A stretch of DNA of 64,000 bases from Nymphaea colorata (taxonomy: Eukaryota): positions 22,816,001 to 22,880,000 of the forward strand of contig NC_045138.2 in assembly GCF_008831285.2 (NCBI RefSeq), read 5' to 3'. Shown one piece after another: positions 48,504 to 64,000 of the stretch (position 1 is its first letter; each line of letters starts with the position of its first letter). The position numbers and the translations under genes are program-made. Below the pieces are notes generated by a model. The model was not told the origin of the DNA and did not search any database. It saw nothing but the letters and a program-made list of their open reading frames with translations.

Positions 48504-50021
48504 TCTTTGCATCCTCAAAAAATCTATTTTGGTCTTTGAAGTGCTCTAGAAAAATGAAGTTTTATTTTGAAATGAGAAAAAAGGAACTCGTTTATCAGTA
48601 CGAGAATTAACCGTTTTCGGTGCCTTTACCGGAAGTAACCAATCCAATGACTATGTTTATTCTTGATGCACTTCATTTTGGCTTAAACATCTTTTTATTC
48701 TAAATGTGGTGTGATGTTTGAAAAATGTTGAAGATTTGATGTTTCAAATTTTTGAGAAAGATGGTGTAAAAAATTTGATGTGTGAAATTTTGAATTGAGA
48801 AATCTTTATAAATATCATTTGGAAACTTTTGAATATCACTTTCTAAAGTCAATTTAGTGTTCTCTTAAGACTTTAAGCAGGTTTTAGATTTTGCTCTAAT
48901 TCGGTTACTACCTACCTAGAGCTTCATCTCATCTTGTTTAAGTGTTTTTAGAGAGGTTTGTGATCATTTATGATGTTAGGTGAATGTGGATGTTGGAATG
49001 CATTGACCCTACATGATTAGAAGCAAATCATTCATTCTTACCACAACATTCATTTAAAAGCATTTCTACCACAACATACATCTAAGTTTCTCATTTTTAT
49101 TTGTATATTTATCATAAATGTTTTTATGAAGAGAGAAAAGTTTTTGAAAATGTTGAGGGGTTGTAGACCATTAATCATGATTCCAATATTTAGTCGTTAG
49201 TTTATTTTTTATATTGCTAAAGTTGGCAAATGGAAAGTTAAAACCTTAGATCTTGGAAGAAAAATATCCAAAAGAATGGAAAATAGAAAATACTTTAATC
49301 CGAGAGGAATAAAGAGAAAGAGATTTTAAAAATTACCAAATAAAAGATTTTAAAAGGGAGAGAGAGAGAGACATATTATTATATGTGTCGTGCGCATTGC
49401 ATGCTATCATGCGACGCACAGTCGCGCGACTAGGTTCAAAAAATAAAAAAAAAATAACAATAATAAAAAAATTAAATTAAATTAAACAAATAAATCCATA
49501 AAAAAGGGGGTCGTTCATAAAAAAACATAAAACTATTTTTTAAATGGATCTAAAATGGTTTTTGTTACAGTTAGGGGAGCCGACTCCTTTTTGAGTGATT
49601 CCATACTTGTTTTAGATCCAGATTGGGTTTGATTAGTTGCCAATGCAATTTAGTGGGTGGTTTAAGTTCAAAAATACATCTTGGCGGGAGAATAAAACGG
49701 AAAACAAAGGGAATGCATGTGTGGCGCTCATAGAATTAAATTTTGTTATTTTGATCTCATCTTTGGATTTCGAGTTTGAAATGCTTGATTTGGATCTAGA
49801 CTTGGGTTTTTAGATCTAATTCAGATCTGAGAGTTGGATTTCGGACTTGAATTTCGTGATTGGGTTCGGTAAGTTTAGAGATTCATTTGGATCAAATAGT
49901 CGCAACTTGTTTTGGGTCTAGGAATGGGATTAGGATTTAAAATTTTAAATCTAAACAACTGAGAGTTTTGTTTGGGTGAAAATAAAAGATAGTCTTTTTG
50001 AAAAAATTTGGGGTGATTACA
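48504..50021 (-). repeat. 3' LTR (~1.52 kb) of the Tat/Ogre element
   Basis: On the - strand it begins TGTAATCACCCC directly after PPT AAAGAGGAG-TATC (50034-50022). 48504-48880 aligns by eye with 63619-64000. Confidence 0.8.
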
Positions 50022-51660: not shown

Positions 51661-52281
51661 TGAAAAAATTTACAGGATGAAATTTCTCTGTCTTCCAATC
51701 TGAGGCCTTGTTTGATGATAGAGTAGAATTTAACATGGTAAATTTAACCATGTTTGATGCACATGGTAGTTTTTTGTAGAGTAAAATTAGCCATGTTTGA
51801 TGCATAGGGTAGAAATTTTTTCAGGATTGTTAGTAGTTGTTTTTTTTTTCTTCTCCTTCCCAATTTCACATGGGAACAAATTAGAAAATCATCTTCCAAA
51901 ACAACAAAATGTTGAGGTTTACACCTACGCATTAAGCATGCAGCACCAAAAAATTTAAGGTACAAAAAAAAGTAACACAGTTAGAACCATGACATCCACG
52001 AGTTCAATGTAGTTGACCAAATAGAACATAGAACCATAACACAGTTAAACCAATATGAAAGTCATAAAACCTTAACAAAAGTGTGTATTCCCATCCAAAA
52101 TATAAGTTTAATAAGTACATATCCAAAAAAAAAATGGTAATCACAAAACAAGTAATCCAACATTTGTGGTTGCACTTCCGTTCAACAAACTTCGTGCCTT
52201 TTATTTATTGCTTTGCGATGACATTTTCAATGACTGAAGGTCTACGTACTTACACACCATACATGTTGTGGAGATACTCAT

Positions 52282-52431
52282 TCATGTGATACTCAGCTGC
52301 TTCAATGAATCAAACGATCTGGAGAGGGTGCCCTTGTATCGAAATACTAAAGGTTGGCATCGCACCCAACTATCATATATGCCTCGCGACCGACCTTCGA
52401 AAATGACATGGTACTTTTGGCGAGGCATCAT
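52282..52431 (-). CDS. Small ORF3: RNase H1 N-terminal hybrid-binding (Cauli_VI-like) domain; probably once extended to a hydrophobic C-tail (~52095)
   Basis: MMPRQKYHVIFEGRSRGIYDSWVRCQPLVFRYKGTLSRSFDSL fits Y-x-V-x-x-G-R-x-x-G-[IV]-Y-x-x-W-x-x-C-x-x-x-V-x-x-[YF]-x-G..F. A 1-nt shift continues EAAEYHMNEYL..CWITCFVITIFFLDMYLL, with two TAA. Confidence 0.8.
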   Translation of the reverse strand: MMPRQKYHVIFEGRSRGIYDSWVRCQPLVFRYKGTLSRSFDSLKQLSIT

Positions 52432-53812
52432 CTTCGTTGTCCTATTCAAAACAAAAAAAATGTCAAACAATCAAATGAAACGATAGCCAAAATTCATAAA
52501 TAAACTTACTATTCAATTGATAATCTGTAAACATTTGAGTTGTTATTGTTGTTCTCATAGAATTGTTGCTTCATCGCTTATGTGTTTGGCTTGCAATTTC
52601 TGGTTCGCTTAAGACAAAGATATTATTCGAAGGTGCATCTTCATCAACAAATTACTCAACATTTGGATTGTGTTCAATTATGAAGTTGTGCAATGCGCAT
52701 GTAGCAAGAACAATTTGAACTTGTTTTTGAATGGATACTGCAATTGCATTTTCAATATTGAAAAACGACCTTTAAACATGCCGAAAGTTCTTTCTACTGC
52801 ATTTCAAAGTGATGAATGACTATGGTTGAATAATTCTTCTTGAGTTCTAGGTGAGTGTGCCCCCGGGGTGTTAAACTCGGACATATGATAACGATGCCCT
52901 CGATAAGGTGTTAGCAAACCGACAATATTTGGATATCCCCCATCAGCAAGATAATATTTGCCTACAATTGAACACAAATTATTTATACACTGTTACATGC
53001 TTCTAAAAAAATGCATTGGTTGGTGGAACTACGTACCTTCTGGAACAACAAACGGATCAGTTTGATGATCATGTGCATTGTACAATACTCTTGAGTCTGT
53101 TGCACTTCCTTTCCATCCTGCCAAAACGTAGTAGAATCGAGTGTCAAATCCAACTGCAGCCATGACGTTCTGAGAAATGAATCCTTTTCTATTGTGAAAC
53201 CTTGCTTGATCTGAAGCTGGGACCCATGCAGGTACATGGGTACCATCGATTGCTCCTAAACAATTCTATATGCATATATGCAAGTTAGTCATGTTGAGTT
53301 TACGGTTATAAAATTACCTGAAAATATGAAAAGGATCGTTTAGATCGCTGAATATGTGTTGGCATCTCATCATTGGGCCACCGAACGTAATCGTTACCCA
53401 GCATACATACCGCTCGTAGGGCTAGGCTGACATGTTTACTTATTTTTTGTCTGAAATGTTGAAACGTATTTTGAACGGCACCATTTCGTTCATTATATCC
53501 AATTGTCAAAAGAAAAATAGCTACTTGTTCTTCTACATTAATGTCACGAGCGTCCTCCAATAAATTTCTAGCTCTCAGAGTGTTATACAATGTCATATAT
53601 GCGTACCCTTCCATACGGAGTAAGCCCATACAATTTCTAGGATGACCTCAAAGCATAAGTTGAACAAAAGATGTACTAGCATCTCCAAATGGATGAACAA
53701 TCCTGCTAGATTGAGGTAGTCGTCTTAACCAAAAGAAGATGAAGACATAAGCTAGCCGAATGAAGAAAAGTGTTCGTTCATCGTCGTCATCGAACATGTC
53801 AATATCAACCAT
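52428..53812 (-). pseudogene. Harbinger DDE transposase (HARBI1/DDE_Tnp_4-like)
   Basis: Exons 53812-53318, 53265-53037, 52961-52510, 52441-52428. Motifs VEEQVAIFL, NCLGAIDGTH, GWKGSATDSRV, KYYLADGGY, ELFN..HSSL*NAVERTFG, CALHNFI, MRTTITTQMFTDY. Four in-frame stops and a 1-nt deletion at ~52725. Confidence 0.92.
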
Positions 53813-54026
53813 TTCGACTAAACTGCATGTACATATAACAAAACTTATTGAACAACAAAATTTCAAAGATGTGTTTCAGTATGAACAAGAACAGATTGCA
53901 TGAACAACAACCATTTCAAACAACATCGAAGATCATGGGATTATACTAATAACACACAATAAATGTTTTGAATGACATGAATTATACAAATAATGAGCCA
54001 TTGAATGTATAACAATCAACTCTTAC

Positions 54027-55018
54027 CTACGAATCAGCAAGCTTATGCATCAACCATGACACCCGGTTTGAAGGTGGAAGGTTGACAAATATCATGGAGT
54101 TGGTGCCTTCCGCTAACATGTCCATACTCTTCATTCGCGTACGACTATATAGGAGTCTAGTGTCCAACATCTCTTGCAATATTTCACAACATTTGACAAA
54201 TTGAAACCCTCTAAAAGTACGTGTGAGGGTGTTCACATTTTCTGCTATACCGTTCAACAAATTGTAATATTCGTCAGCATTGGTTGACATGTTCCTTTTT
54301 TACCTATGTGTAGTTCTATTAGTTGTCGTTGTCGGATTTTCAGTTGTAGGAGTTGAAGGTACTGGCGATTGTAGGGGAGGACTATCTATATAAAGTATCT
54401 GTGTGAATGATTGTTCACTTTCAGGTTGCATGTACAGTGGAGTCGATTGAGATGCAGGTGTCGAAGGGAGTGGTTCAGTGTCATCATGTAGCATGATGTT
54501 CAATGTGTCTGCGTCTTTTCCAGTTGCATGGGAATCGCCATACACCTTCGTGAACTCATCATAATATCTCTATAACTTTGGCCCTCTGTACTTTTTCTTA
54601 TTCGGATATTCTGAAAAAAATCATGTGTTTATATATTGAACAAGTAAAGACATGTTAGACAAAACCTAACAGTATGAACTCTATATCTTACCTCAATGTA
54701 GTCACTCCATACTTGGGGGTCGACATCAATACATTTGTTAATTGGGTCATAGCGAAACCCGCTTGTATTCAGAATTTCCTTCATGACTGTTAAGTTAGGT
54801 TTGAAATACTTCAATTTGTTTTTTATTTTGTTTTTACTGAGTTCTGGACCGAATCTATCCATCATGTTTTTTTCAATTGTTGTATACGCTTTAGACTTCA
54901 AACTTCCACCAGATTTCATACCAGGCATGCGTGAATGCTCCACAAGAAGCTGGAATAAGTAGTCCATTTGTGGTTCAATCCATGTAAGATTTTCCCTTGA
55001 TGGACCGTTGTCTTCCAT
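54027..55018 (-). pseudogene. Harbinger ORF1, Myb/SANT-like DNA-binding protein (~300 aa)
   Basis: Exon 55018-54692: LTW..LFQLLVE..LKSKAY..KIKNKLK..LNTSGFRYDP..VWSDYIE. Exon 54610-54027: YPN..KYRG..YDEF..VYGDSHATG, S/T/P-rich linker, FVNLPPSNRVSWL. One 1-nt deletion and two stops. Confidence 0.9.
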
Positions 55019-57134
55019 GGTAATGTTTTGTACAATGTTTCTTCACAACTACTGTTTTCATCATGAAAAAACTTGCATGAAGAAAGTTGATAGACGATAA
55101 CAGGGAAAAGAAACCATATTAGGAAGACAAAAGCAAACGAGCACCCATCTCTAGAAAATCTAAACAACAGACATGCTTGTAACGAACTACCAATGTGATG
55201 CATCAAGCAATAGAGATCGACCATTAGACACATTAGAGAAGAATACTGACATAGCACACACCTAGAAAATTGTATACATGTTGTCCTTCAGCAGTTTCGC
55301 TATCTTATTTTTCTCCCCTATTTTGGGATTACCAGTCAAGCCAATTTTTCAATGAAACATAGACAACTAAAGACTACATAATACATAATAAACTCGACCA
55401 AATAGCACGAACTCATGGCCAACATTCAGCTGAACTACAGTTTTACGTTCTTTCGTATGGGATTTCGTTCAAAAAACTAATTGTGTCCTTGAAATTTCCT
55501 ACCAAAGGCATTGCCCATCGCATGGATATGGCTGCAACATGGTGTAATTAACATTGCAGTATGCTATCAATGGAAGGCAATCCAGTAGAAGAGACAAAAA
55601 GAAATAAAATAACAACCAACAATGTCCATGAAGCGGATGGCAGTCTTGAGGTAGAAAGCACAAGATAAAATTTATAGAAATGAGATCAATCAGGTAAAGA
55701 CATGACATTCTAAACATATTGAGGTTGAAAGTGACAAGTTCGGCCATAAAGATCTATGTAGAAGACCAAGCACGACATCCACCATAGACTAGAGAGACTT
55801 TTCAACATAAAGTACTCATATCAGAAGATCAGGGCATTTATCTCTGTGCACCCTACAGTTGTTGTTTCTCTTCATTTTTAAAATCATGGCAACTTCAAAA
55901 TTTTCAACATGTTGAAGTAGCACAAAGTGATATGTTAACTTCAATTCGACATGACTACTCTAGATAATGTAAGATACACTCATTAAATGTGTTGCATCAC
56001 TGACAGTGCCAACTTCACATAAAAGAAAAATAAATAAATAACTTGCACATCAGCTTAGAATTATCAACTTTGAAGCATGTGTCTATGTCCACATTTTCCA
56101 AGGTTCTTTTTTACCATTATTAAATTGATAGAGATCACATTAAAGTTAGCATCACAAGGATCACTATGTCTTACGAAAGAAAACAGAACTTGGTATTTCT
56201 GCATTGATAAGTAGCAGGAGCTAAAGAAATCAAGAAACAAAGCAAAAATTAAAGGAAATTACCTTTTATCTTGTTAACCAGCCACTTTGTGCCTCCTTCG
56301 ATGCTGGTGGACAATGACCATATTAACCAAAAAGAAAAAGATGTTATCAGCACAATACAAGAAAAACAGAAGTTTGAAGAATAATATAACATAATCATGT
56401 AAAAGCACCTCAAAAAATTAACATAACATGAGCACTTTGTACAGGTTACAGGTTTGCATTTTATGAACAAGAACTAAAAACTTGGATATCAGCTAAAAAA
56501 AATGCACAATTGCAATACACAAAATAGCTACCATGTATATGATTAGAGTTCTAAAAAGTAAAAACCTTAAATAACCAGCATGAAAACATAAAACATGGCA
56601 AAGCTGATTTCAAGACCATTTAACGTAGTTTATGGTGTCATGAACATTTGGACGTTTCTCTATAGAGATAGGTTTGACCATTAATATTGCTAAGTTAGCA
56701 GCAACATGAGGATTGTAATGAGCTCTTGATGGCTCTAAAATAATCCATGCACGCAGTGCATACAGAACAAGAGTTAGAGACCATCGGAATGTGGCAGATA
56801 TAATGGATGACACATGATAGTCATGTACTATCTTATTCCTCAAAATTGTCATGGAAAGTGCACCTAAAATAAACGATGTAAAACAGTAAGCAGGGCTAAT
56901 TTCTTGTTCTGATGTATTCAAGAGCAAGGTTAATTTCCTGTTTTGAGAGGTATACCTGAATAAAGGAGCAGCGAAGAGTAAGAAGATCAAATGTCCTACT
57001 GGTATTGAAGGTTTGCATATGAAAAACATCAAAGAGGAAAGATGAGTTTTTGATGGTTTGCGTGTGAGAGAGTGACATGTAGAGGCACGTAGGGCTCACC
57101 TGGCACTGCGATCAGGTGACATTGGGTTTGAGAG

Positions 57135-57595
57135 GAGAGACCTGTGCAGCGTCAGAGGATAGAAACAAGAGTGCAAGAGAGGAGGAGACACAGCGAGAGA
57201 GGAGGAGACACAGCGACATAAGGGAGACGCAGTGACAGAGGAGAGATCTGTGCAGCAGCAAAGGTGAGGAACAAGACAATGAGAGAGGAGGAGACGCAGC
57301 AATGGAGGGGAGACGTAGCGAGAGAGGAGGAAATGCAGCGACAGAGGGGAGATGCAGCGAATAGAGAGGAGACGCAACGAGAGAGGAGACACTATCAACA
57401 GCAAAGGTGAGGAACAAGAGAGTGACAGAGGAGGAGACGTAGTGACAAAGGGGAGACGCAGCGAGAGTGAGAGCGGAGAGACCTGTGCAGCGAGAGAGGA
57501 GAGGTTCCGTAGAGTGCAAGGGAGGAAGAGACGCAGACCTGTGTAGCGAGAGAGGAGAGGTTTCGTCGAGTGCGAGGGAGGAGAAGACGCATCGA
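57135..57595. repeat. Degenerate ~20-bp purine-rich tandem array inside the Harbinger 5' end
   Basis: Repeated GAGAGGAGGAGAC(A/G)CAGCGA-type units with higher-order recurrence (CAGCAAAGGTGAGGAACAAGA and GGAGACCTGTGCAGCG-like blocks recur). Confidence 0.85.
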
Positions 57596-57673
57596 GATTG
57601 TGCTCGACAATGGGTGTCCACGGGAAAGAGGGGAAAAGTTGAGAGTCCTAACAGCTCTTAATTTTTTCTCCAC

Positions 57674-57706
57674 GAAAAAGTCCGACCTCACAGGTCGGAC
57701 TTTTTC
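57674..57706. other. Perfect 15-bp-stem hairpin near the Harbinger right end
   Basis: GAAAAAGTCCGACCT-CAC-AGGTCGGACTTTTTC. Confidence 0.95.
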
Positions 57707-57855
57707 ACACATGAAATTTCACCCGACCACATTTCATTTTTCGACTGAAATTTCATGTCGTTTGATGCATGGTGAAGTGAACGGGTGAAAGTTCACACGC
57801 CCATACAGTTTTCAACCAATGCACAGGGTTTTTTCTATACATCAAACGGGGCCTT

Positions 57856-58120
57856 AATATAGCACCAACTTTTCATCTTTGACTTGTCATTCACTTGAAT
57901 GATGATAAGCTGAGAGTCGTTGAAGGCGTGCACTCTTTTTGTTTGGAAACTCAATAAAAAACAAAGTCCTTGTATAAGGGCCTCATATTCAACCATGTTA
58001 TGGGTAAATGAAAAGTTGAGTTTCAAAGAGTATGGGATCATTTCATCTTCCAGAGTTATAAGTAAAATGCATTTACCTACTCCCATCACGTTCTTGGATC
58101 CATCAAAGTGCATCTTTCAT
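57856..58120 (-). pseudogene. Additional (archaeal-type) RNase H domain of the Tat lineage, C-terminal part missing
   Basis: MHFDGSK..GVG..LNFSFTHNMVEYEALIQGL..DSQLII.QVN..VKDEKL, ending at the Harbinger TIR. Confidence 0.88.
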
Positions 58121-59700
58121 ATCGAAATTGGTTCCAATCCTAATACATGTTTGCATGGAAACTCATCATCTGTTTTCACTTTTTCGTATTGGGGAATGCC
58201 TGTCAATTGATCTGCAATTGCTTGTCCTTTGATTGACTTCTGGGACTCATATTCAAAATCATGTTGCATCAACAAAACATGCCATTTAGTGATGCACCCA
58301 TTAAGGAATGGCTGCTCTAAGATATATTTAAGAGGATTTAGCTTTGAGGGTATCTTTACTTCGCAAGCTAATAAATAATATCTCAAATTCTGACACATTC
58401 AAATCAATGCTTGACAAATTTTTTTCATTAGAGAGTACTTTTTTTCATACTGGACAAAAGTTTTGCTCATGTAATATAATGCATGCTTGATGCTACTTCC
58501 TTTCTCATATTGTACCAAAAAATTACCACATGTTGACTCATTCACTGTGATGTAAAGCAGCAATGGTCTACTCAACACTAGGGGTTTTAAGATTGGTGGA
58601 TTTTAGAAGGTATTCATTAATCCTTTTAAATGACTGTTGGCACTCAAAACTCCATTCAAATTTGATATCCTTCCTCAGCAGCTGGTTGAATGGTTTGTAT
58701 CTCATGGCTAGATTAAAAATGAATCATCTGATGGACTGTATTTGCCCCTACAAACATCGTAGTTCCTTGATGTTGGTAGGTAGTGGCATATCAATGATCG
58801 CTTTGGCTTTGGTCAGATCCATCTCATTCTCCCTCTTACTAACCATGAAACCTAAAAGTTTACCTGATTCAACCCCAAATACACATTTTGGAGATTCAAA
58901 TGAAGCTTGTACTGTAAGAGTCTCTCAAACACCTGGGTAGGGGTTTCAATGTGGTCTTCTCTTGCCGTAGATTTAACTAATATATCATCGATATATGCAT
59001 CCATTATTTTGTGCATTTGGCCGTGGAAGATAGCGGCCATAGCTTTTTGATAAGCTGCTCCTGCATTTTTTAATCCAAATGACATCACTGTATAACAAAA
59101 AGTGTCCTAGGTTGTAATAAAAGTGGTGTTAGGTTGATCATTGACTGTTAATTTTATTTGATTATATCCCGAATATCCATCCCTAAAATAGAATATGGCA
59201 TGGCCTACATACTGTCTACTAACAAATCAATGTTTGGAAGTGGGTAATCACCTTTTGGTGTGGCTTTGTTCAGGTCTCGAAAGTTAATGCATTGTTTGAC
59301 TTTGGCATTCTTCTAGGGGACCACCGCAATATTAGCGAACCACCCAGGGTAATCAATTGCACGAATAAATTTTGCCTTTAGAATGTCTTCTAATCCTTCC
59401 TTTACGATTCCTTCTAGTCGATGATCAAGCTTGCATAATTTTTGTTTAACTGACCTGCAACTACGACTTAGGGGCAAATGATATTCAACCAGCTGGGGGT
59501 CTAAATCCGGCATATTCATAGGTCCATGCGAAAGCCTCTTGGTGCTTTATAAGAAAATCCATCAATTTTTCTTCTCGTCTGCTAACAAACTGGTGCCAAC
59601 TTGAAGGATCTTAGGATTCTCACTAGTTCCAATGTTAATCTCTTCAATTGGGTCGTTAACAAAATACGAGGGTTGTTCTTGTTCTTAAATCTGAGTAAAT
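58117..59700 (-). pseudogene. Gypsy reverse transcriptase + RNase H (decayed)
   Basis: MPDLDPQLVEYHLP..VKQK, INFRDLNKATPK, MSFGLKNAGAAYQKAM..YIDDILVKS, YYMSK..E..Y, KSIKGQAIADQL. Confidence 0.93.
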
Positions 59701-63618: not shown

Positions 63619-64000
63619 CGTTTGCATCCCTGAAAATCTATTTTGGTCCCTGGAGTGCTCTAGAAAAATGGGGTTTTATTTTGAAATGAGAAAAAAATTG
63701 ACTCTCTCTTTGATACGAGGATTGACCGTTCCTGATGCCATTCTCAGGGATAACCAATCCAAGGGCTATGTTTATTCTTGATGCATTTCATTTTAGCTTA
63801 AACATTTTTTTTATTCTAAATGTGGTATCATGTTTGAAAAATATTGAAGATTTGATGTTTCAAATTTTTGAGAAAGAGAGTGAAAAACATTTTGATTTTA
63901 GAAATTTTGAATTGAAAAATCTTTACAAATAACATTTGGAAACTTTTGAAGATCACTTTTTGAAGTCAATTTAGTATTCTCTTAAGAGTTTACATAGGTT
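63619..64000 (-). repeat. 5' LTR of the Tat/Ogre element (truncated by window edge)
   Basis: Colinear with 48504-48880 (TTTGCATCC..AAATCTATTTTGGTC..GTGCTCTAGAAAAATG..). Confidence 0.9.

Follow-up and report, generated by a model that had tools for sequence, protein, structure and literature searches.

What does a small third open reading frame do in a transposon of a group that is held to carry two genes? PIF/Harbinger elements, which are used as plant genome-engineering tools, are described as two-gene elements, and the 64,000-nucleotide stretch of Nymphaea colorata DNA analysed here (the window) contains one with an additional frame, ORF3, behind its transposase. The first-pass annotation of this locus, made from the letters alone, saw in ORF3 the hybrid-binding domain of RNase H1, also found in the caulimovirus protein P6/TAV, with a probable C-terminal membrane anchor, and offered R-loop targeting, suppression of RNA silencing or translational reinitiation as its possible roles. 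We asked whether ORF3 is a gene of the element family and which of these roles its anatomy favours. Papers identified by PMC numbers are cited for the portions of their text available to us.

Structure of the element

The element occupies positions 51704-57853 on the minus strand (6,150 bp) and is a decayed copy, delimited by a pair of terminal inverted repeats (TIRs) with their flanks and recognised by Myb and DDE_Tnp_4 matches and by its lesions. The TIRs are 14 bp long (5' end at 57840-57853, minus strand; 3' end at 51704-51717, plus strand), open with GG and agree at 12 of 14 bases; short TIRs that start with A or G are a feature of PIF/Harbinger elements (PMC4482050). The TWA target site duplication is imperfect, the flanks TGA and TTA on the plus strand matching at two of three bases, and host DNA is apparently missing at the junction. 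The insertion lies in a Ty3/Gypsy-type retrotransposon whose reverse transcriptase and RNase H domains are outside the TIRs (RNase H at 57838-58398). This host copy has two RNase H-type domains, in a Tat-like arrangement. It seems to be short of about 90 codons at the insertion point, a size that we take from the usual layout of Tat elements, and a possible adjacent deletion at 51703/57854 would account for the imperfect target duplication. A direct repeat (48506-48883 and 63621-64000, 84% identity, 15.1 kb spacing) is possibly the LTR pair of the hosting retrotransposon.

The first gene of the element (ORF1) encodes a Myb/SANT protein and has its coding exon 1 at 54692-55018 (minus strand), with a PF12776 match at E 3e-13, as is expected of the second ORF of a PIF/Harbinger element. 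Exon 2 (54027-54610, minus strand) contains two premature stops and a weak match to PF24769 (E 0.085). The stop codon of the Myb gene itself (54029-54027) abuts a splice donor, from which a 204-nt intron predicted from the sequence alone (53823-54026, minus strand) leads to the transposase, whose ATG at 53812 is 10 nt past the acceptor. Such an arrangement may be a general route by which plant PIF elements place both genes on one RNA.

The DDE transposase gene (52510-53812, minus strand) is composed of the exons 53812-53318, 53265-53037 and 52961-52510, to which gene models P0004, P0005, P0011 and P0013 map. Its product matches PF13359 (DDE_Tnp_4) with 29.1 bits (cut-off 24.8, E 8.8e-7), and the gene is broken in this copy: premature stops and a frameshift are found across the Myb and transposase genes, and the element copy in the window is dead. 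In its short G-starting TIRs, its Myb/SANT ORF1 upstream of DDE_Tnp_4 and its size of about 6 kb the element resembles the known PIF/Harbinger elements (PMC4482050, PMC2213677, PMC5543537).

Two further features were observed near the ends. The TIR core (GTTTGATG) occurs three times near the 3' end (51704-51810), forming subterminal repeats that could be binding sites of the Myb protein. At the other end, positions 57100-57600 (minus strand) hold CT-rich degenerate repeats of 40-140 bp, which probably represent a 5' leader exon, as a donor is predicted at 57100/57099 and the N-terminus of gene model P0001 maps there. The same repeats are a source of spurious ORF3 N-termini in gene prediction (P0001).

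ORF3 in the window copy

ORF3 is found on the minus strand from 52431 to about 52108, behind the Myb and transposase genes. The TIRs bracket it, in agreement with the original placement inside the element and straight behind the transposase. An open stretch of 49 codons (52431-52285, minus strand) matches Pfam PF01693 with 37.2 bits (E 3.4e-9, cut-off 21), and it is the only copy of this domain in the 64-kb window; a chance match was rejected. No catalytic RNase H domain follows after 52285, and PF01693 is the sole family on the homologous gene models P0006 and P0010, as the first reading had proposed for this frame. The RNase H domains of the flanking retrotransposon are indeed separate, and descent of ORF3 from them was ruled out, since they belong to a different domain and lie outside the TIRs.

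From the Pfam match, the structure model and the selection tally, the hybrid-binding domain and the helix that follows it can be assigned to 52255-52431, whereas a variable linker corresponds to 52160-52254 and a Cys-rich hydrophobic tail, predicted to be a membrane anchor, to 52108-52159 (all on the minus strand). The tail was delimited using the tails of P0006, P0014 and P0010, hydropathy and conservation. Within this span the window copy has lost one nucleotide at about 52303, bears premature stops at 52252-52250 and 52207-52205 in the linker, and has lost two nucleotides in a T run at about 52125-52134. The one-nucleotide shift had already been noted and is genuine, given that P0001 is continuous across it and that sister contigs have an extra base at 52300-52308 relative to the window copy; the two stops and the loss in the T run had been overlooked. 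A programmed frameshift at 52303 was ruled out, as homologs and sister contigs are in frame. The hydrophobic C-terminus that had been read here is a probable anchor in the family, but the window copy reaches it only through the two stops and the 2-nt loss. Neither does the gene end at 52095, as was thought: the family stop is at 52110-52108. Both P0006 and the ORF3 portion of P0014 have 108 aa, which corresponds to the window span up to this stop plus the three lost bases.

Sister copies and homologs

A protein search returned 17 close homologs, 13 of them named (11 from Nymphaea thermarum and two from N. colorata). For the sister copies, contigs from five public DNA runs of five organisms were aligned to the region in two sets of four runs; run X1, the best source of contigs, is possibly the source of the window itself and hence not independent. 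In four runs between 145 and 287 contigs per run covered ORF3, and in each of them both ORF3 stops are sense codons in 87-100% of the aligned depth. Contig pieces that bridge the transposase end and ORF3, with at least 31 bases on each side, made up six of the 32 among those listed and came from three of four runs. Among the 13 homolog gene models with upstream sequence, five connect ORF3 with the leader, the Myb gene or the transposase of the element; the remaining eight do not map to any part of the window. Since sister copies are open, contigs bridge the two genes and gene models join them, ORF3 is a component of the family and not a one-off capture.

Outside this set the association has not been encountered. 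In a Pfam scan of 65 of the 143 further library matches and three gene models, P0004 was the only PF01693 protein with DDE_Tnp_4, and neither these library matches nor the ESM Atlas clusters listed gave such a linkage beyond the water-lily-like set. Metagenome contigs scanned for related loci gave a single one, a bacterial RNase H gene. Viral contigs gave no locus with an alignment to the ORF3 family and none with the transposase; a wider alignment gave three loci, two complete RNase H genes and a short one. Neither the metagenome locus nor these three have any bearing on the Harbinger linkage, which is seen only for water-lily-like elements.

In a tree built by a quick method on 54 columns, ORF3 groups weakly (SH 85) with small proteins lacking a catalytic domain that were chosen by eye, and not with intact RNase H1 genes. 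No plant RNase H1 or caulimovirus P6 was identified among the rows of this tree, which cannot name a donor.

Selection on the domain

Differences between the window copy and the contigs were classed as family polymorphisms when their mean frequency was below 80% and as private to the window copy otherwise, and 40 of the 74 listed differences were scored. Of the 15 polymorphisms within the domain, 11 are synonymous, where the expected fraction is 0.23 (p 5e-5), and ten fall in third positions (p 0.009). By comparison, one of seven private changes of the window copy and none of five linker polymorphisms are synonymous; the value for the tail (1/7) is uninformative, as these differences were scored in the frame of the window copy and not in that of the family. 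The tally is a coarse count on collapsed contigs and not a dN/dS estimate. The pattern suggests that the domain is under purifying selection in the family and that the window copy is decaying neutrally.

As the domain polymorphisms are mostly synonymous, ORF3 is likely to be a selected gene, and taking all the gene-level evidence together we hold with high confidence that it is real and selected. The first-pass idea of a transposon-borne third gene with the domain shared by the RNase H1 N-terminus and TAV dsR was borne out: the gene occurs in sister elements and shows signs of having been under purifying selection. We found neither a lack of PF01693, nor absence from sisters, nor neutral evolution in the family, nor a single capture of a host RNase H1 exon, plant host RNase H1 lying outside the comparison.

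Fold and binding residues

Profile searches related the ORF3 family to the N-terminal domain of RNase H1 from yeast (1QHK, E 2.5e-9) and human (3BSU, E 1e-3). In the structure model residues 1-60 have pLDDT values of 89-98 and superpose on 3BSU with 0.9 A rmsd over 46 columns; an earlier model from a six-sequence alignment (pLDDT 56) was set aside. The family therefore combines the PF01693 score with the three-strand, two-helix fold of this domain. A viral fold search placed caulimovirus TAV proteins first, with phage and giant-virus RNase H proteins tied with them, and the good-fit TAV matches span only about 50-60 columns.

The residues equivalent to W43 and F58 of human RNase H1 are kept, K59 is present as R or K, and K60 is replaced by S in the family; the aromatic binding residues are invariant in the ORF3 family, the F58 equivalent having been lost in the dead window copy. 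Where the human protein has R32 and R33 the family has F and E, leaving a smaller basic surface, and in one subfamily residues 1-50 carry a net charge of just +1. W43 and the FKK stretch of human RNase H1 are required for duplex binding (PMC6846478), and by homology the ORF3 family may bind an RNA duplex or an RNA:DNA hybrid. Unlike RNase H1, ORF3 has no catalytic domain and fewer basic residues, and its longer helix is followed by the linker and the hydrophobic tail.

Linker and tail

The tail of ORF3 consists of about 16 hydrophobic residues, with three to five Cys in the last 20 residues. Over 19 residues its hydropathy is 2.46 in P0006, 1.74-2.01 in P0002 and P0004, and 1.85 in the window; among the stop-free windows of the element's non-coding DNA 2-10% are equally hydrophobic, because that DNA is T-rich. 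The hydrophobic tail is kept in only five of the 17 homolog gene models, where it is read in two frames: P0002 and P0004 read it in the other frame past the T run, and the remaining models splice the tail away or stop earlier. Between the subfamilies 41 of 60 domain residues, 8 of 32 linker residues and 12 of 16 tail residues are identical (tail versus linker, p 0.002), and the length of 108 codons is constant across the two subfamilies. Similar tails, with a plainer hydrophobic segment, end three of 54 short distant matches (P0030, P0136 and P0138), all of one weak tree group. In the structure model the tail is unstructured (pLDDT about 48). Its conservation against the linker and the similar tails of distant relatives support the tail as an anchor, and on this evidence it is probably one.

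Gene junctions and expression

A characteristic of this family is the predicted tight joining of its three genes. Past the transposase exons the transposase frame is open to 52510, where a consensus donor stands, and an acceptor follows 68 nt on. The predicted 68-nt intron between transposase and ORF3 (52442-52509, minus strand) is 76% AT and 56% T and has two GT donors 4 nt apart. Splicing from the first donor is predicted to add four codons to the transposase, which would then end at the TGA within ATGATG (stop 52430-52428; last codons and overlap at 52426-52441, minus strand), overlapping both ORF3 start codons (52431 and 52428). The second GT, 4 nt downstream, would give an in-frame transposase-ORF3 fusion; of the two donors, the first agrees better with the consensus. 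The ATG of the transposase and that of ORF3 are each 10 nt past their predicted acceptor.

The homologs are consistent with this junction: every gene model that includes sequence upstream of ORF3 (13 of 13) comes in at the corresponding position, from preceding exons that are unrelated. The second residue of ORF3 is M in ten of the 17 homologs, I in five and K in two, and all these codons begin with A, so that the overlapping transposase stop is preserved in 17 of 17, although this variation amounts to just two or three independent changes. The tight joins between Myb and transposase and between transposase and ORF3 suggest a polycistronic or an alternatively spliced RNA, and the layout would be compatible either with one RNA that carries the three genes and is read by reinitiation, or with a common leader that is spliced to the genes one at a time. 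Both linking introns, the overlap of stop and start, a single RNA for three genes and the insertion of the tail into membranes are all predictions from sequence. We lean slightly towards a common transcript for transposase and ORF3.

Overlapping stop and start codons (AUGA, UGAUG) serve termination-reinitiation in the SART1 and LINE-1 retrotransposons, in caliciviruses and in influenza B (PMC5972666), and the predicted overlap between transposase and ORF3 likewise lies between two long ORFs. It differs in arising only after a predicted splice, in belonging to a plant DNA transposon and in its lack of accessory signals: the TURBS core UGGGA is absent from the 115 nt upstream of the overlap in the window copy, and folding of the 112 nt past the acceptor gave a 9-bp stem at the start codon that is not significant (z = -1.33).

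Comparison with known systems

PIF/Harbinger elements are reported to obey a two-ORF rule (PMC4482050, PMC5543537), to which the water-lily family adds a selected third gene behind the transposase, its three genes being linked through predicted introns that leave either 10-nt gaps or an overlap. The portions available of the plant PIF surveys PMC2213677, PMC6327408 and PMC2528002 mention no third ORF, those of PMC13438062 and bioRxiv 10.1101/2024.04.02.587720 hold nothing relevant, and in the full-text literature searched, whose scope leaves out Repbase and most subscription papers, no PF01693 third ORF is reported for PIF/Harbinger. As far as searched, a third, selected PF01693 gene in a PIF/Harbinger family is new, and the predicted 68-nt intron linking transposase to ORF3 is described here for the first time. 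Related cases are a domesticated PIF gene pair annotated as dicistronic in Anopheles (PMC9710019) and a PF01693-type domain captured once by a fungal Helitron (PMC4289320). A third selected gene in elements held to have two would imply an unrecognised step in the PIF/Harbinger life cycle.

Caulimovirus P6/TAV is also a nuclease-less carrier of this domain on a plant mobile element with packed ORFs or fused stop and start codons (PMC5902531, PMC5670102). The dsR domain of TAV is reported to bind TOR, to be required for polycistronic translation and to be dispensable for silencing suppression (PMC5902531), and the minimal active part of TAV comprises residues 111-242 (PMC5670102). TAV, with about 520 aa, has many more domains, whereas ORF3 has 108 aa with a hydrophobic tail and does not contain the full mini-TAV region; a transmembrane tail is not among the P6 domains given in the available text of PMC5670102. 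The likeness in sequence is that of a shared domain, transactivation being known for TAV, and does not speak for descent of ORF3 from TAV.

Possible role of ORF3

We propose that ORF3 is a conserved third gene of a PIF/Harbinger family, whose 108-residue product combines the duplex-binding fold of RNase H1 with a predicted anchor at its C-terminus. The likely place of ORF3 is the final exon of the transposase transcript, and it would be made together with the transposase. The protein would act outside the cut-and-paste reaction, on the RNA of the element in the cytoplasm, most likely as a helper, tethered to a membrane, that promotes translation of this multi-gene RNA much as TAV does; any contact with TOR or ribosomes is presumed from homology. 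Action on the element's RNA, most likely in translation, is our tentative preference, offered by analogy and with less than even confidence. If the selected gene, the anchor and the shared transcript are all granted, a TAV-like translation role would have about one chance in two at best. It is favoured because a TAV dsR-type domain, which binds TOR and serves polycistronic translation, is here paired with tightly packed ORFs, and the stop-start overlap predicted from the sequence gives the reinitiation idea an anatomy. Against it, a shared leader spliced to each acceptor in turn would yield three single-gene RNAs and make reinitiation unnecessary, and only about 45-60 residues are common to ORF3 and TAV. 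Its most complete form, a single spliced mRNA for Myb, transposase and ORF3 with a miniature TAV enabling reinitiation past long ORFs, and with the orphan plant microproteins as the same gene on Harbinger elements, would be quite unlikely to hold in full.

The gene-level evidence (PF01693, open sisters, synonymous excess and fold) would equally suit a counter-defence protein, that is, a membrane-tethered duplex-RNA binder with its own spliced RNA that shields element RNA from Dicer/RDR6 silencing or from decay. Anti-silencing proteins occur on other transposon superfamilies, such as VANC of VANDAL elements. The conserved equivalents of W43, F58 and K59 agree with this role, W43 and FKK being needed for duplex binding (PMC6846478). 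The reduced basic surface (R32/R33 to F/E, K60 to S, net charge +1 in one subfamily) does not, and the reported dispensability of the homologous TAV domain for RNAi suppression (PMC5902531) weakens it further; we regard counter-defence as rather unlikely. The same reduced surface would suit a protein-protein module that contacts the Myb protein, the transposase or a host factor, with a Cys-rich tail that is lipid-modified or metal-binding and forms no transmembrane helix. The three to five Cys, the short hydrophobic run and the lack of structure in the modelled tail are in keeping with such a module, but the invariant aromatic binding residues and the plainer hydrophobic ends of P0030, P0136 and P0138 make it doubtful.

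A different outcome of the junction would be a transposase-ORF3 fusion through the second donor, which could steer insertion to R-loops or hold the transposase at a membrane as a brake. The second donor is in frame and P0013 is a gene model joined in this way, yet the first donor is closer to the consensus, ORF3 keeps an ATG of its own in 17 of 17 homologs, none of the Atlas clusters listed contains both families, and no lead from a query with the fused model reached 0.9. A membrane tail is also poorly compatible with chromatin targeting, and R-loop targeting as such fits badly with it, so that the fusion appears to us a minor prospect. It would be more improbable still for ORF3 to be a captured passenger, a transduplicated host or viral fragment amplified with the element and without a role. 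Grapevine PIF elements do hold transduplicated host sequence (PMC2528002), the linkage is known only from water-lily-like elements, and the selection tally is based on 40 of 74 listed differences in collapsed contigs; but the synonymous excess in the domain, the conservation of domain and tail beside a drifting linker, the 108-codon length kept in two subfamilies and the weak-tree neighbours, which are small catalytic-less proteins and not intact RNase H1 genes, all speak against mere amplification. Returning to the translation helper, the TAV domain lies here in an element with genes seemingly arranged for polycistronic reading, and this expression layout opens the reinitiation idea to test. 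A 2018 review knows of no TAV-like reinitiation activator outside caulimoviruses (PMC5902531), and the ORF3 protein, if it is one, would be the first outside the Caulimoviridae.

Related small proteins

All of the 30 nearest ESM Atlas clusters are PF01693-only, and the top three hold proteins of 80-116 aa in 86-124 members, from Streptophyta where known. These small plant proteins, named 'Ribonuclease H1 N-terminal domain-containing', resemble ORF3 in size, in having PF01693 only and in their Streptophyta origin. We infer that such orphan proteins may be Harbinger cargo, and the finding would give a place to a large group of orphans to which annotation pipelines wrongly attach the name 'Ribonuclease H'.

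Other architectures were also observed among the distant matches. P0030, P0065, P0035, P0052 and P0066 have two to four tandem PF01693 domains with no recognised catalytic domain; the C-terminus is a hydrophobic segment in P0030 and P0065 and resembles a coiled coil in P0035. P0058, P0091 and P0106 are UvrD-type helicases fused with two PF01693 domains.
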